Shown: in pieces, positions 5,305 through 23,414 of the stretch
How the letters are laid out: each line of letters opens with the position of its first letter
How positions within the stretch are numbered: position 1 is the stretch's first letter
The notes under the pieces: generated by a model
Told to the model about the DNA's origin: nothing
Databases searched by the model: none
What the model saw: only the letters and a program-made list of their open reading frames with translations
From: Escherichia coli
GTDB taxonomy: Bacteria; Pseudomonadota; Gammaproteobacteria; Enterobacterales; Enterobacteriaceae
Assembly: GCF_036507355.1 (NCBI RefSeq)
Contig: NZ_AP027877.1
Reading direction: 5' to 3' (one strand)
Length of the DNA: 64,000 nt
Made by a program: the position numbers and the translations under genes

Positions 5305-6645
5305 ATGACGACACAATCCAGTCCTGTTATTACTGATATGAAAGTCATTCCGGTCGCCGGGCATGACAGCATGTTGCTCAATATTGGTGGTGCGCATAAC
5401 GCATACTTCACCCGCAATATCGTGGTACTCACCGATAACGCCGGGCATACCGGCATTGGTGAAGCACCGGGCGGAGAGGTGATTTATCAAACACTGGTCG
5501 AAGCTATTCCGATGGTGCTGGGCCAGGAAGTTGCGCGCCTGAATAAAGTGGTTCAGCAGGTGCATAAAGGTAATCAGGCCGCCGATTTTGATACCTTCGG
5601 CAAAGGTGCCTGGACTTTTGAATTGCGCGTTAATGCCGTAGCGGCGCTGGAAGCCGCCTTGCTTGACCTGTTAGGTAAGGCGCTGAATGTTCCGGTCTGC
5701 GAACTGTTAGGGCCAGGCAAGCAACGCGAGGCTATTACCGTCCTCGGTTATCTGTTTTATATCGGTGATCGGACCAAAACCGATCTTCCTTATCTGGAAA
5801 ATACGCCGGGCAACCATGAGTGGTATCAGTTGCGGCATCAGAAAGCGATGAACAGCGAAGCCGTTGTGCGTCTGGCGGAAGCCTCACAGGATCGCTACGG
5901 CTTTAAAGATTTTAAACTTAAGGGCGGCGTGTTACCTGGCGAGCAAGAAATCGACACTGTTCGTGCATTGAAGAAACGCTTCCCGGATGCGCGGATTACC
6001 GTTGATCCCAACGGTGCATGGCTGCTTGATGAAGCCATTTCTCTGTGCAAAGGGCTGAATGATGTTCTCACCTATGCCGAAGATCCATGTGGCGCAGAAC
6101 AGGGCTTCTCCGGACGTGAAGTGATGGCGGAGTTTCGGCGGGCGACCGGCTTGCCCGTTGCGACTAACATGATCGCCACCAACTGGCGCGAAATGGGTTA
6201 TGCGGTGATGCTCAATGCGGTAGATATTCCACTTGCCGATCCGCACTTCTGGACGCTTTCCGGTGCAGTCCGCGTGGCGCAGCTTTGCGACGACTGGGGG
6301 CTGACCTGGGGCTGCCATTCTAATAACCATTTCGATATCTCTCTGGCGATGTTTACCCATGTGGGCGCGGCGGCACCGGGTAATCCTACCGCTATCGATA
6401 CCCACTGGATTTGGCAGGAGGGCGATTGTCGCCTGACCCAAAATTCGCTGGAGATTAAAAACGGAAAAATTGCCGTTCCTGATGCGCCCGGTCTGGGCGT
6501 GGAACTGGACTGGGAACAGGTACAAAAGGCACATGAGGCCTATAAACGTCTGCCTGGCGGTGCGCGTAACGACGCAGGCCCGATGCAGTACCTGATCCCC
6601 GGCTGGACCTTTGACCGTAAACGTCCCGTTTTCGGCCGTCATTGA
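5305..6645 (+). CDS. gudX: Glucarate dehydratase-related protein GudX
   Basis: 446-aa enolase-superfamily ORF, paralogous to the next gene. Confidence 0.9.
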
Positions 6646-18096: not shown

Positions 18097-19410
<1,314 letters not shown>

Positions 19411-19430
19411 GACTGACTTAACGTCTTAAT

Positions 19431-19461
19431 AAAAAACCCGCTTCTTGAAGCGGGTTTTTTT
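19431..19461 (+). terminator. Rho-independent terminator after eno
   Basis: aaaaaacccgcttcttgaagcgggttttttt. Confidence 0.8.
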
Positions 19462-19465
19462 ATCT

Positions 19466-19828
19466 TCACATTTTGAGTTCAGTAAGCAGAGCGATAACAT
19501 TAATAAATGTTATTCCCACCAGGATAAGTATCCGAACAATTTTTCTGCTATTCCTTACATTGCTGACAAAATCATTATGAGAAATATTGGATGAATATTT
19601 TCGTTGATGGACTTTATAATCCCAAAGAAGATCATTTGCCTCAGGTATTGGGTTAATCAGACTGTAGATGCAAAAGTATACAAACGTATCTAAAGCAAGC
19701 AGTGATGTTATCAGTTGAAATAATTCATCGCCCTGGAAGGCTTTATTAAGCCAAATCATTCCAGCAGCACCGAATAAGCCAAATACAAATTTACTTAATC
19801 GCGGATGATTCGCTAAAATCTTACTCAT
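19466..19828 (-). CDS. Hypothetical small membrane protein (about 3 hydrophobic segments), AT-rich, no recognisable family
   Basis: 120-aa ORF in track; GC visibly below neighbours; function not inferable. Confidence 0.45.
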   Translation of the reverse strand: MSKILANHPRLSKFVFGLFGAAGMIWLNKAFQGDELFQLITSLLALDTFVYFCIYSLINPIPEANDLLWDYKVHQRKYSSNISHNDFVSNVRNSRKIVRILILVGITFINVIALLTELKM

Positions 19829-19863
19829 ATTTTCTTACCTTCCCTGTAATCTGTTTTTAAGTC

Positions 19864-20766
19864 TTACCATCTTCCTGACGCGCCGCCACCGCCGGATGAA
19901 CCGCCGCCACCGCTGAAATTGTCATTGTCGAAAGAGGATGAAGAGGAAGAAGACGATGACGAATGCCAGGAGGCCGAGTTGCTTCTTTCGTAGCGTGACG
20001 GTCGGTTTGCACTACGCATTGAATCACGCACCTTTCTGCCGAAAGGTGTGAAAGCGATAGCTACGACCAGGAATGGAGTGGCGAAACATAATAATGTGGC
20101 AAGAATTCCCCAGCTCCCGCTATATCCAGCGATGGGAAGTACAAAGGCCAGTATTATGGCAGCAAAGCAAATCACTCCCAGCGTTTTGATATATCCTCTG
20201 GCAGAAATAAACGTCAGTACTATCGCCCAGACTAACAGAGCCCACCAACCGCTAAAGGGTAAAGGATGATCGGGCGATGTATTATTGACTAAATCATTTC
20301 CTGATAGTCGGGTTTCAATATCACCAATACCTTGTTGCAAGCCGACAGCAAGGTCGCCCTTTTTAAACGCTGGAATAATACTGTTGCGTATAATTTGCCC
20401 GGACTGCGCATCCGTCAGAATACCCTCAAGTCCGTAGCCAATTTCAATATGTACTGTATGATCTTGCTAGGCAACTACCAGTAAAATACCGTCATCAAGA
20501 TTCTTATGACCGGGCTGCCAACGCTCGAATACCCGCGTTGCGTACTGCTCGATGGTTTCGTCGCCTGTTGTATCAACCACTAACACGACCAACTGTGCGT
20601 GTTTTTTTTGTGTCAGGGCTTTAATCTGGTTGGTCAGGGTGTTTACTTCGCTGTTTGTTAATGTGCCGGTTAAGTCATTCACATACTTGGGTGATTCAGG
20701 TACTGGAATTTGTGTGGCAAACACAGATGAACAGAAGAAAGCCGTAAGGAAGATAAAATTTCGCAT
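19864..20766 (-). pseudogene. ygcG: TPM-domain protein YgcG homolog, interrupted by one in-frame TAG at 20467-20469
   Basis: Track ORFs 20467-20796 and 19864-20340 share a frame; translation through the stop continues the TPM domain (…LLVVA*QDHTVHIEIGYGLEG…); signal peptide start MRNFIF, Gly/Ser-rich C-tail. Confidence 0.7.
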
Positions 20767-20779
20767 AGAACTTCCCCGC

Positions 20780-21400
20780 TTAATGAGCATTAGCATTCTG
20801 GCTAAAATCTATTGTTGGGGCTTTACTTACTGCGGCGACATCATCCGGCAAATAATTTTTCTTTGGTGTGTAATCCATGACCTTTGCGGTTAATACAGCG
20901 GGGAATTTGCGGATAGTGACATTATATTGTTCAATGGCTTTAATATATCTTCCTCGCGCAACGGCAATTCTATTCTCACTTCCTTCGAGCTGTACCATTA
21001 AGTTTTGATAGAGCTCTTGAGCCTTTAACTCAGGGTAACGCTCACTAATTATCGTTAACTGACCGAGAGTGCGAGTCACCTGCGCCTGGGCCTGTTGCCA
21101 GGCTTGTAATTTTTGTGCATCTCCGGGAGCTTGCTGAAGATCGCTGCTGGCGCGATTAGCCTGGCTACGAGCCAATGTTACGGCTTCCAAAACGTCTTTT
21201 TCATGGTTGGAATAACCTTTAATACTGGCGACAAGATTAGGAATAAGATCGGCGCGACGTTGATATTGATTTAATACCTCAGACCAGGAGGCGTTAACCT
21301 GCTCATCATAGGTTTGAATATCGTTATATCCACAGCCTGATAAATTGAAAATAAATATAATTAAGATGAATATCCTGAGCATGTTTAAATCCTTTTTCAT
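20780..21400 (-). CDS. LemA family protein, probable lipoprotein (alternative start 21382, MLRIF…LSGC lipobox)
   Basis: 206-aa ORF; stop 14 bp upstream of the ygcG start, so the two look co-transcribed; low GC. Confidence 0.7.
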   Translation of the reverse strand: MKKDLNMLRIFILIIFIFNLSGCGYNDIQTYDEQVNASWSEVLNQYQRRADLIPNLVASIKGYSNHEKDVLEAVTLARSQANRASSDLQQAPGDAQKLQAWQQAQAQVTRTLGQLTIISERYPELKAQELYQNLMVQLEGSENRIAVARGRYIKAIEQYNVTIRKFPAVLTAKVMDYTPKKNYLPDDVAAVSKAPTIDFSQNANAH

Positions 21401-21554
21401 TAATTCCTTAAAACATAATACGCCGCTTCATTTTATTCTTTATGATCTAATGCACTTTTTGCCTTAAACCTGCCTGTAACAGAATGTTAATAAGACATGA
21501 TTGTTGCGGCAGGATCTGCAATAATTAACAATTATCCACTTCACAGAGAATGCT

Positions 21555-22226
21555 ATGCAGTACCCGATTAACGAGATGTTCCAGACCCTGCAAGGTGAGG
21601 GTTACTTTACCGGCGTCCCCGCCATTTTTATTCGTTTACAGGGATGCCCGGTTGGCTGTGCCTGGTGCGACACCAAACACACCTGGGAAAAGCTTGAGGA
21701 TCGGGAAGTCTCCCTTTTCAGCATTCTGGCGAAGACCAAAGAGAGTGATAAGTGGGGGGCGGCGAGCAGTGAAGACTTGTTGGCTGTCATTAGTCGCCAG
21801 GGATACACCGCGCGGCATGTGGTGATTACGGGTGGTGAGCCTTGCATTCATGATTTGCTACCACTGACTGATCTGCTCGAAAAGAACGGTTTTAGCTGCC
21901 AGATCGAGACCAGTGGTACTCATGAGGTACGCTGCACACCGAATACCTGGGTTACCGTATCGCCAAAGCTGAACATGCGCGGCGGCTATGAAGTGTTGTC
22001 ACAGGCACTGGAGCGAGCCAACGAAATCAAGCATCCAGTGGGGCGCGTACGCGATATTGAAGCACTGGATGAACTATTGGCAACGCTGACCGATGATAAA
22101 CCGCGAGTCATTGCACTGCAGCCGATTAGCCAAAAGGATGATGCCACACGATTGTGCATTGAAACCTGCATTGCGCGTAATTGGCGTTTGTCGATGCAAA
22201 CACATAAATATCTAAATATTGCCTGA
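21555..22226 (+). CDS. queE: 7-carboxy-7-deazaguanine synthase QueE
   Basis: 223-aa radical-SAM ORF (CxxxCxxC-like cluster). Confidence 0.9.
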   Translation: MQYPINEMFQTLQGEGYFTGVPAIFIRLQGCPVGCAWCDTKHTWEKLEDREVSLFSILAKTKESDKWGAASSEDLLAVISRQGYTARHVVITGGEPCIHDLLPLTDLLEKNGFSCQIETSGTHEVRCTPNTWVTVSPKLNMRGGYEVLSQALERANEIKHPVGRVRDIEALDELLATLTDDKPRVIALQPISQKDDATRLCIETCIARNWRLSMQTHKYLNIA

Positions 22227-22565
22227 TTAAACATTTATAAGCGTTATAAATGGGTGGAACCTGTAAAGACTTCTACTCATTTATATTCTTTGTCGCCTCT
22301 GAAAACTCCTCCATTTTACCCATCCAGGGCTAATCATTAGCATTCTCTACAAATTCTGTGGTGTTAATTTTTTGTTGGAGTGAAAATTATTGCGGTAAAG
22401 TTTGGTAGATTTTAGTTTGTATAGAATTATTTTAAATATTTGCCTTTTTAATCAATGGGTTAAGTGCTCTTTAACATAATGGATGTGTTGTTTGTGTGAT
22501 ACTGTAAAGTTGGTAGATTGTGACTGGCTTAAAAAATCATTAATTAATAATAGGTTATGTTTAGA

Positions 22566-22777
22566 GAGTTCCCCGCGCCAGCGGGGATAAACCGGAGAGA
22601 GTCCAGTATCAATCCCGCGATCCGCAGAGTTCCCCGCGCCAGCGGGGATAAACCGCCGTTGCGGATCTTGAGTAGTGCCACGTCACCGAGTTCCCCGCGC
22701 CAGCGGGGATAAACCGGGTACAAAAGAGGCCCCATTCTGGCAGGGCTCGAGTTCCCCGCGCCAGCGGGGATAAACCA
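22566..22777 (+). CRISPR. Type I-E CRISPR array: 4 repeats of 29 bp (GAGTTCCCCGCGCCAGCGGGGATAAACCG) and 3 spacers of 32 bp, AT-rich leader upstream
   Basis: Repeats at 22566, 22627, 22688 and 22749 (61-bp period); last repeat ends in A; degenerate repeat remnant near 22867-22888. Confidence 0.95.
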
Positions 22778-23244
22778 CCATATAACCCGTTATCTCTTTC
22801 TCAAGTTTTTATATTAGCAGTACTTGTAATAAGCAACATATCCACGTAACACCTCATGTTCAAAATAGTTCCCCATGCCAGATAAGTTCACAATTATCGA
22901 TACAAAAAATTAAATTTAATCAAAGTGTTATTTGTATAATTCTTAAGCCGTTAAGAAATTTTAATCTATTATTTTTTTAATATTAATTAATGCCTGTTAA
23001 TTTTTTCTTTAGTATAACAGTGTATTTTTTAAGCTTGTTATTCATTGATTAAGTAATAAATCTGGAAATTTGTCTTTGTTTTGAGGCTAATGAGTGGTTT
23101 TACATAACCGCCTCTATACGCTGTTGATGAATAGTTCTTATGAATAAAGATATCCAGTTCATACTTTAAGTGAAAATTGATAAAGTGCGATTCGTATTGT
23201 CTTTTATTCTAAAGACATCGAGTGTAGTTAATATTCCTTGTAAA

Positions 23245-23368
23245 AACAGGGATAAACCGAACTAGTTAAAGTTTTTATTATGTTCCCTGCATCAGCGGGG
23301 ATAAACCGGACTTGTTATCATTTTTTAAGTTGTCGAACTTATGTTCCCCGCGCCAGCGGGGATAACCA
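23245..23368 (+). CRISPR. Degenerate, vestigial CRISPR array (2-3 mutated repeats, one 32-bp spacer)
   Basis: Partial repeat ending ggataaaccg at 23259, mutated repeats at 23280-23308 and 23341-23368 flanking a 32-bp spacer. Confidence 0.7.
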
Positions 23369-23414
23369 TTCAGGTATGTTCAGGCCGGGCAGTTTCCCGC
23401 CCGGTTTTCCTCAC

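Follow-up and report, generated by a model that had tools for sequence, protein, structure and literature searches.

The gene cluster between queE and eno

We analyzed a cluster of three genes that lies between eno and queE in a 64,000-nucleotide (nt) stretch of the Escherichia coli contig NZ_AP027877.1 (assembly GCF_036507355.1); this stretch is called the window hereafter. The eno (18112-19410, plus strand) and queE (21555-22226, plus strand) genes flank three co-oriented frames on the minus strand: lemA, a gene for a YgcG-type protein with a TPM domain that belongs to paralogue group T1, and the small open reading frame (ORF) orf120 (Table 1). Comparison with other genomes showed that the locus starts with a gene for a LemA-family lipoprotein, continues with one to three genes for YgcG-type TPM membrane proteins and, in some lineages, ends in a member of the ORF120 family. 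The window carries the lemA-T1-orf120 version of the locus, together with a patch of about 400 bp of O157 type and an amber codon private to the strain.

The three frames are tightly spaced, with gaps of 13 nt between lemA and the TPM gene and of 35 nt between the TPM gene and orf120, and our reading of the sequence placed a purine-rich ribosome-binding motif ahead of each of them. An initial annotation, made from the letters of the window alone, had placed the frames correctly; it gave the gaps as 14 and 36 nt, however, and missed the amber codon in the middle gene, which is not intact. The same annotation had described the block as AT-rich relative to eno and queE, and this was borne out: the interval 19411-21554 has a GC content of 42.1% against a window mean of 51.2%, a value as low as that found in only 0.6% of equal-sized windows, and the GC content of the individual genes is 34.7% for orf120, 41.9% for lemA and 47.2% for the TPM gene, as compared with 50.8% for eno and 51.6% for queE.

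The lemA product comprises 206 amino acids, or 200 when it is counted from the second methionine, the start used by RefSeq. It covers the complete PF04011 model (E 1.2e-48, model positions 1-149 of 149, residues 38-199) and matches the solved four-helix bundle of the LemA protein TM0961 of Thermotoga maritima (PDB 2ETD; E 4e-32, residues 28-184). Read from the sequence, the signal peptide terminates in a lipobox, L-S-G-C (Cys24), and LemA is therefore a predicted lipoprotein. The cut-off of the MamQ equivalog (NF040966) is not reached (86.8 bits vs. 250); MamQ, a LemA-family magnetosome membrane protein, shares the domain fold by sequence homology and acts at membranes, but there is no magnetosome context at the locus studied here.

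The TPM gene is interrupted by an in-frame amber codon at the position of Trp100. Its longest open frames are an N-terminal fragment of 99/109 amino acids and a start-less remainder of 158 amino acids, so that no uninterrupted frame spans the whole domain together with the Gly-rich C-terminus and the membrane helices. The TPM domain extends over residues 29-151 and contains the stop, which lies upstream of the invariant G110-Y-G-L-E114 motif and of all membrane helices. The causative substitution, G to A at position 20468, is private to the window when it is compared with both reference haplotypes: the corresponding codon is TGG in E. coli 600468, ECOR29 and O157:H7, tryptophan occupies this column in all TPM-domain paralogues compared (12 of the 13 aligned sequences), and T1 orthologues of 301 amino acids are intact in 600468 and ECOR29. 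The exact 99-residue product, deposited as 'hypothetical protein VEE46_09290', was found on only four contigs in a collection of 15 billion proteins. Since the frame 3' of the TAG codon runs open to the normal stop and is free of any other defect, the mutation is recent, and judged from its sequence the TPM gene of this strain is a recent pseudogene.

The TPM-domain searches were run on a sequence in which Trp100 had been restored. The repaired protein matches PF04536 (E 3.6e-38, model positions 1-123 of 125), PDB 7TBR (E 4.6e-21), 2KW7 and 5ANP (BA41), so that the LemA and TPM domain calls of the initial annotation both hold. It comprises a cleavable signal peptide, the TPM domain, three hydrophobic helices with one basic and one neutral loop between them, and a basic, Ser-rich (Ser/Gly-rich) tail that ends in ...FSGGGGSSGGGGASGRW. 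By the positive-inside rule, the TPM domain would be periplasmic and the tail cytoplasmic. The cut-off of the Psb32 equivalog (NF047379) is not reached (40.3 bits vs. 160).

Several observations concern the tail and the state of the T1 gene elsewhere. The last ~17 residues, FSGGGGSSGGGGASGRW (window 19864-19915), are nearly invariant across TPM paralogues of this locus that are otherwise 28-50% identical, and the motif is retained in a T2-like protein that lacks a TPM domain (locus L015, 3264-4061); it also yields a weak Pfam match to a 'YxzE-like putative bacteriocin'. RefSeq/PGAP marks T1 of strains 600468 (L001, 3219-3890) and ECOR29 (L019, 2833-3504) as a pseudogene 'missing C-terminus', while both genes are in fact open for 301 codons to a normal ...ASGRW stop; these flags probably arose in annotation, either from the low-complexity tail or because the reference protein was truncated. 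The T1 gene of the O157:H7 strain M1300706002 (L002, 2486-3394) has an in-frame stop of its own after codon 224, within the third membrane helix, and the 72 codons past it are still open; this constitutes a second, independent inactivation of T1, seen in one locus. In E. marmotae, where no T1 gene had been called and a pseudogene was suspected, translation revealed an intact ORF of 296 amino acids.

Table 1. Positions of the genes and sequence features of the queE-eno interval in the window.
Feature	Position	Strand	Basis or description
lemA	20780-21400	-	ORF; LemA-family product of 206 amino acids
YgcG-type TPM gene, paralogue group T1, pseudogene here	19864-20766	-	Translation with one internal stop
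orf120	19466-19828	-	ORF; small membrane protein of 120 amino acids, three hydrophobic helices
Amber codon, Trp100 TGG>TAG	20467-20469	-	In-frame, codon 100 of the TPM gene
Recombinant patch	20533-20918	-	3' end of lemA and 5' 235 nt of the TPM gene, O157-type alleles
Predicted bidirectional intrinsic terminator	19431-19460	.	Perfect 14-bp palindrome (100% complementary) between A6 and T6
Divergent lemA/queE control region, 154 nt	21401-21554	.	Conservation of 84-99% across all E. coli haplotypes, K-12 among them

ORF120, a small membrane protein family of the Enterobacteriaceae

The third gene of the cluster codes for a protein that had been described as lacking a recognizable family, and searches with hidden Markov models agreed with this: ORF120 has no family in Pfam (best E 0.33), NCBIfam, PADLOC or PHROG. 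A profile search of the PDB gave nothing below E 0.37, and a Foldseek search of AFDB50 recovered only members of its own family. We also considered that ORF120 might be the split-off membrane half of a TPM protein, and rejected this at an hhalign probability of 0.2%.

Nevertheless, orf120 is a real gene that represents an orphan family restricted to the Enterobacteriaceae. A word-indexed search and an exhaustive HMMER search of 1.84 billion representatives recovered near-identical sequences from E. coli and two diverged enterobacterial relatives only, to which the structure search added a homologue from Citrobacter portucalensis with 48% identity. Identities amount to 44-46% for the homologues on Klebsiella-like contigs and to 30-32% for those of Salmonella. 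All of these relatives comprise 120-137 amino acids and, in a hydropathy scan, carry three hydrophobic helices at matching positions. When the gene is compared codon by codon, identity at the second, first and third positions is 73/52/33% against the Klebsiella-like homologue and 59/46/30% against that of Salmonella, a pattern that is typical of purifying selection and points to constraint at the level of the protein. The AlphaFold2 model of ORF120 is helical and confident (pLDDT 83.5). When one genome per species was scanned with the ORF120 alignment, no relatives came up; the family is therefore absent from the species-representative genomes. One further match, a repetitive, eukaryote-like protein of 1444 amino acids (P0013), was taken as spurious.

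The genomic context of the homologues ties the family to the same chromosomal site. On a 9-kb Klebsiella-like contig, whose QueE is 98% identical to that of Klebsiella quasipneumoniae, the gene order is ygcE-queE followed by lemA-TPM(298)-X(265)-TPM(292)-orf129, and orf129, the last member of this five-gene cluster, starts 29 nt past the stop codon of a TPM gene, with a type I-E array of clustered regularly interspaced short palindromic repeats (CRISPR) after it. The family member thus sits 29-35 nt behind a TPM stop in two genera. In Salmonella enterica, a small number of genomes, from serovar Florian and others, have a homologue of 136 amino acids as the sole gene between queE and eno; its orientation is the same, and no remnants of lemA or TPM genes were found in this Salmonella interval. 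The ORF120 family is hence a recurrent resident of the queE|eno locus that is usually, but not necessarily, linked to lemA-TPM.

CRISPR sequences accompany several of these homologues. They were seen downstream of the orf129 gene in loci L004 and L015 and at ~6423-6458 in locus L005: on the Klebsiella-like contigs a type I-E array comes after the homologue, and in Salmonella one repeat-like remnant stands between the homologue and eno. As an array or its remnant follows the ORF120 homologues, both features may have travelled together.

Haplotypes, relatives and flanking regions of the locus

The population sample comprised 5426 complete E. coli genomes, in which K-12 ygcG was counted at a coverage of at least 80%. 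The orf120 gene is present in 339 of them (6%), always chromosomal, in single copy and together with lemA and T1. A T1-type TPM gene occurs in 1437 genomes, i.e., in these 339 and in a further 1098 that carry lemA without orf120, and the K-12 arrangement of ygcG and yqcG is found in 3933. Among the 1098 genomes one locus, that of O157:H7, was inspected in full; it reads lemA-T1-T2-T3. On the protein level T1, T2 and T3 are 31-45% identical to each other, and K-12 YgcG is 38% identical to T1 of the window and 43% to T3. The deeply divergent TPM paralogue groups of this locus number at least four, and all of them share the C-terminal GGGGSSGGGGASGRW. The earlier suggestion that the arrangement is specific to a lineage holds in so far as it is not universal in E. 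coli; the ORF120 family, however, occurs at the site in other genera too.

Outside the recombinant patch, the window haplotype is 97-100% identical to the 600468/ECOR29 type. Within the patch, 59 of the 61 informative sites are of O157 type, with runs of the 600468/ECOR29 type on both sides, and the sliding identity is 96-100% vs. 73-82%. The window thereby shares an O157-type segment of about 400 bp with the cluster of O157:H7, and its lemA and T1 genes have counterparts in O157:H7 and in E. albertii (lemA-T1-T2-T3) with 95% DNA identity for lemA and 87% protein identity for the orthologous T1. In contrast to the window, these clusters carry T2 and T3 (2.1 kb) in place of orf120, with homology stopping exactly at the T1 stop codon, and T1 of O157 is shortened by the premature stop described above. 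In three complete genomes that have the three-gene haplotype (PK8566, PK-F-10132 and ECO2947), insertion sequences (IS) of the IS1 or IS3 type interrupt the lemA or TPM gene. Erosion thus recurs at the locus, through the amber codon of the window, the premature stop in T1 of O157 and the IS insertions.

In K-12 the same eno/queE site is occupied, in the same orientation, by ygcG-yqcG (b2778), and the queE-proximal 206 nt, including the first ~50 nt of lemA, are 84% identical to the window. YgcG itself is another TPM paralogue, without a DNA match to the TPM gene of the window beyond the 3' tail; moreover, orf120 is missing, and lemA is reduced to the 46-codon yqcG, annotated as a 'cell envelope stress response protein'. 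Alignment of yqcG (K-12-type locus L003, 3477-3617) with the window (21245-21420) covers the upstream region and the first ~100 nt of lemA; the start codon ATG of yqcG lines up with a short upstream ATG-TTT-TAA of the window, and loss of 1 nt generates the new frame. The yqcG gene therefore looks like a relic of the 5' end of lemA, its signal-peptide region, after a frame change and decay. By retaining such a relic, K-12 indicates that lemA was ancestral in this lineage too. The statement that K-12 possesses only ygcG at this site was thus correct with respect to the presence of ygcG, but it overlooked yqcG, and the K-12 ygcG gene is not an orthologue of the TPM gene of the window.

Beyond E. 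coli, the queE|eno site carries lemA-T1-T2-T3 in E. albertii, lemA-T1-T3 in E. marmotae and lemA-TPM in K. quasipneumoniae. The identity of LemA to that of the window is 96% in E. albertii, 92% in E. marmotae and 81-84% in Klebsiella, i.e., it falls with phylogenetic distance. As had been anticipated, LemA and TPM proteins are commonly encoded together: the two genes were adjacent in all nine loci inspected from other taxa (E. coli O157:H7, E. albertii, E. marmotae, two of Klebsiella type, Brenneria, Burkholderia, Pseudomonas and a metagenome-assembled genome of the Leptospiraceae). They overlap by 4 nt in Pseudomonas, the Leptospiraceae genome reads lemA-TPM-TPM, and in Burkholderia (L020, 2882-4615) a TPM-LemA pair is embedded in a type VI secretion system (T6SS) cluster between tssG and a gene for a SciN/TssJ-family lipoprotein, which hints that the pair can serve in the assembly of membrane complexes. 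The window pair conforms to the general bacterial pattern of LemA and TPM (YgcG, COG1512-type) genes in its full-length PF04011 and PF04536 matches and in the position of lemA directly upstream of the TPM gene; its TPM protein also starts with a signal peptide, carries membrane helices in its C-terminal part and has a Gly-rich tail, a layout shared by every relative in the comparison. It departs from this pattern in that LemA is a predicted lipobox lipoprotein instead of carrying a plain N-terminal transmembrane anchor, in the amber interruption of the TPM gene, and in the extra orphan gene for a three-helix membrane protein that follows.

At its downstream end the cluster converges on eno, and the palindrome between both units (RNA fold -17.9 kcal/mol, z = -4.7) is predicted to be shared by eno and lemA-TPM-orf120 and can, on this reading, terminate both. 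The terminator-like sites returned by the promoter scan did not include this hairpin because its loop is short, and a search of Rfam gave only sub-threshold matches that were driven by it. The opposite end of the cluster is divergent from queE. PhoP-box-like direct repeats with two mismatches are present in the lemA-queE spacer (21465-21481, minus strand) and at 21382-21398 (plus strand); the former was rejected as a PhoP box, given that the window-wide count of such repeats is not clearly above that in shuffled sequences. In K-12, binding of phosphorylated PhoP has been shown for both 300-bp segments that precede queE, inside yqcG as well as past it, and queE expression rises when yqcG is deleted (PMC4974570). 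The PhoP-controlled queE promoter, which governs a block of cell division, adjoins the lemA-TPM locus, and since the locus abuts this promoter, differences between haplotypes could alter queE regulation between strains.

Origin and possible role of the locus

Collectively, these data lead us to regard the cluster as a probable case of an old, chromosomally fixed and highly polymorphic locus of the Enterobacteriaceae at queE|eno, whose alleles have been shuffled by homologous recombination and have repeatedly been eroded. This is a structural and evolutionary account; the confidence that we place in any specific biochemical role of the module is well under half of that which we place in it. As such, the locus is an ordinary strain-variable one and not a new kind of system. 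RefSeq already names its products 'LemA family protein', 'TPM domain-containing protein' and 'hypothetical protein' (WP_000034929.1); what is new is an Enterobacteriaceae-specific family of small membrane proteins tied to the locus, the three-haplotype structure, the strain-private amber codon and the apparent derivation of yqcG from lemA.

The following picture of the intact module would fit the sequences. LemA may be a helical-bundle protein that is lipid-anchored on the periplasmic side, and the intact TPM protein may expose its TPM domain to the periplasm, cross the inner membrane with three transmembrane helices and end in the Gly/Ser tail in the cytoplasm. Together they could act as a scaffold or a chaperone-like pair that assembles or maintains membrane-linked complexes under envelope stress, transcribed divergently from queE from the region that binds PhoP in K-12, with ORF120 as an optional accessory subunit in the inner membrane. 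In this strain the TPM partner would be lost, orf120 may be under-expressed through polarity, and the module is probably decaying. Such a role is in keeping with proposals from comparative genomics that TPM domains assist the assembly of membrane-linked complexes and are not phosphatases (PMC11237479; PMC12419801), and with the implication of LemA-like four-helix bundles in membrane remodelling or scaffolding (bioRxiv 10.64898/2026.07.15.738315). Psb32/TLP18.3, which functions in photosystem II repair and assembly, and Bacillus subtilis YdjH, a partner of PspA, all of them TPM-domain proteins that have been studied experimentally, likewise share the TPM fold by sequence homology and serve in the assembly or maintenance of membrane complexes, although there is neither a photosystem nor a PspA context at the window locus.

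A number of points weigh against this picture. The scaffold or chaperone role is borrowed from distant proteins, namely Psb32/TLP18.3, YdjH and MamQ, and TPM domains have also been credited with a phosphatase or ATPase activity. The topology of ORF120 comes from a hydropathy scan, and that of the TPM protein was read off the sequence by the positive-inside rule. Co-transcription of the three genes is putative, and the consensus promoter scan yielded nothing convincing, with fewer sites than in shuffled sequences; the PhoP-box-like matches likewise stay at chance level, with 21 in the whole window vs. 13.3 ± 3.4 in shuffles. Finally, because the Salmonella homologue occurs without lemA or TPM, ORF120 cannot strictly depend on them.

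The locus bears on several questions. LemA and TPM/YgcG are among the most widespread bacterial gene pairs without an assigned function, and E. coli supplies natural haplotypes at one locus in which the pair is intact, partly decayed or replaced. Some annotations should be corrected as well: the TPM gene of this strain is to be listed as a pseudogene, the RefSeq 'pseudo' label on intact T1 genes looks mistaken, and yqcG is better described as a putative lemA relic.

A bolder reading combines two ideas, and we consider it rather improbable: ORF120 would be an undescribed inner-membrane subunit of LemA-TPM modules, and the TPM cassettes at queE|eno would be a long-lived balanced polymorphism. 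In these cassettes the cytoplasmic ...GGGGSSGGGGASGRW tail is invariant, while the periplasmic and membrane parts are deeply divergent, which a conflict with phages, bacteriocins or host factors would have brought about. If this were true, the stress-induced small protein YqcG of K-12 would be a by-product of lemA decay.

It is unlikely that the site is, as a whole, a conflict locus kept under diversifying or balancing selection instead of a housekeeping stress module, with its proteins acting as phage or bacteriocin targets or in exclusion or immunity and ORF120 resembling a small immunity-like membrane protein. The coexistence of at least four divergent TPM groups (28-49% identity) at one locus in one species, with intragenic mosaicism, would fit such a history, as would the recurrent inactivation by the window amber, the T1 stop of O157 and IS elements in three genomes, the vicinity of CRISPR arrays and the T6SS context of the pair in Burkholderia. 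On the other hand, relaxed selection explains recurrent loss equally well, LemA is well conserved (81-98%), none of the three proteins contains a toxin-like domain, and none matched the defence models of PADLOC-DB at E <= 0.1. A weak C-terminal match to the YxzE-like putative bacteriocin family (E 2e-5) would also fit the conflict reading, but it falls in low-complexity Gly/Ser sequence.

Quite unlikely, too, is a recent genomic island of three genes that was transferred horizontally as a unit into one E. coli lineage, the origin that the initial annotation had proposed on account of the low GC content. That the base composition deviates is correct, and the presence of the three-gene block in only 6% of the complete genomes, as well as TPM alleles that differ by up to ~60% in protein within the species, could be viewed in the same light. 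This proposal is contradicted, however, by the position of the locus: absence from the site in sister species and genera, as expected of an island, was not observed, and E. albertii, E. marmotae and Klebsiella all have lemA-TPM at exactly this queE|eno site, with LemA identities that track relatedness. Neither the ORFs of the window nor a repeat search revealed an integrase or other mobility gene, an IS element, a tRNA gene or bounding direct repeats in the interval, and eno and queE flank it directly. In addition, K-12 keeps the presumed lemA relic yqcG, Salmonella and a Klebsiella-like contig have relatives of ORF120 at the site, and the window allele is a mosaic produced by homologous recombination. 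What the allele divergence of up to ~60% does require is an exchange of old alleles.

We deem it very unlikely that the module still works in this strain, be it through read-through of the amber codon by a suppressor tRNA, or through a secreted N-terminal fragment and a re-initiated membrane part that act separately. The frame past the TAG is open to its normal stop without further defects, and an ORF of 158 amino acids that starts with TTG spans the membrane part; the stop, however, lies inside the TPM domain ahead of the invariant G-Y-G-L-E, and the downstream part would have neither a signal peptide nor a recognizable ribosome-binding site. That orf120 is a chance open frame in an AT-rich spacer, as its very low GC content (34.7%), its narrow distribution and the lack of a family or fold match might suggest, is barely credible in view of full-length homologues in four genera (30-48% identity) with length and three helices in register, the codon-position pattern (73/52/33% at positions 2/1/3 against the Klebsiella-like homologue), the conserved spacing behind the TPM stop in two genera and the confident helical model.

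On its downstream side, queE is followed by type I-E CRISPR sequences. The first array (window 22565-22777) consists of four repeats with a 61-nt period and three spacers. A second one (23230-23369) follows ~480 nt further on; it is short and degenerate, with repeats that are 63-80% identical to the consensus, and a leader-like stretch of 27% GC lies between the two arrays.

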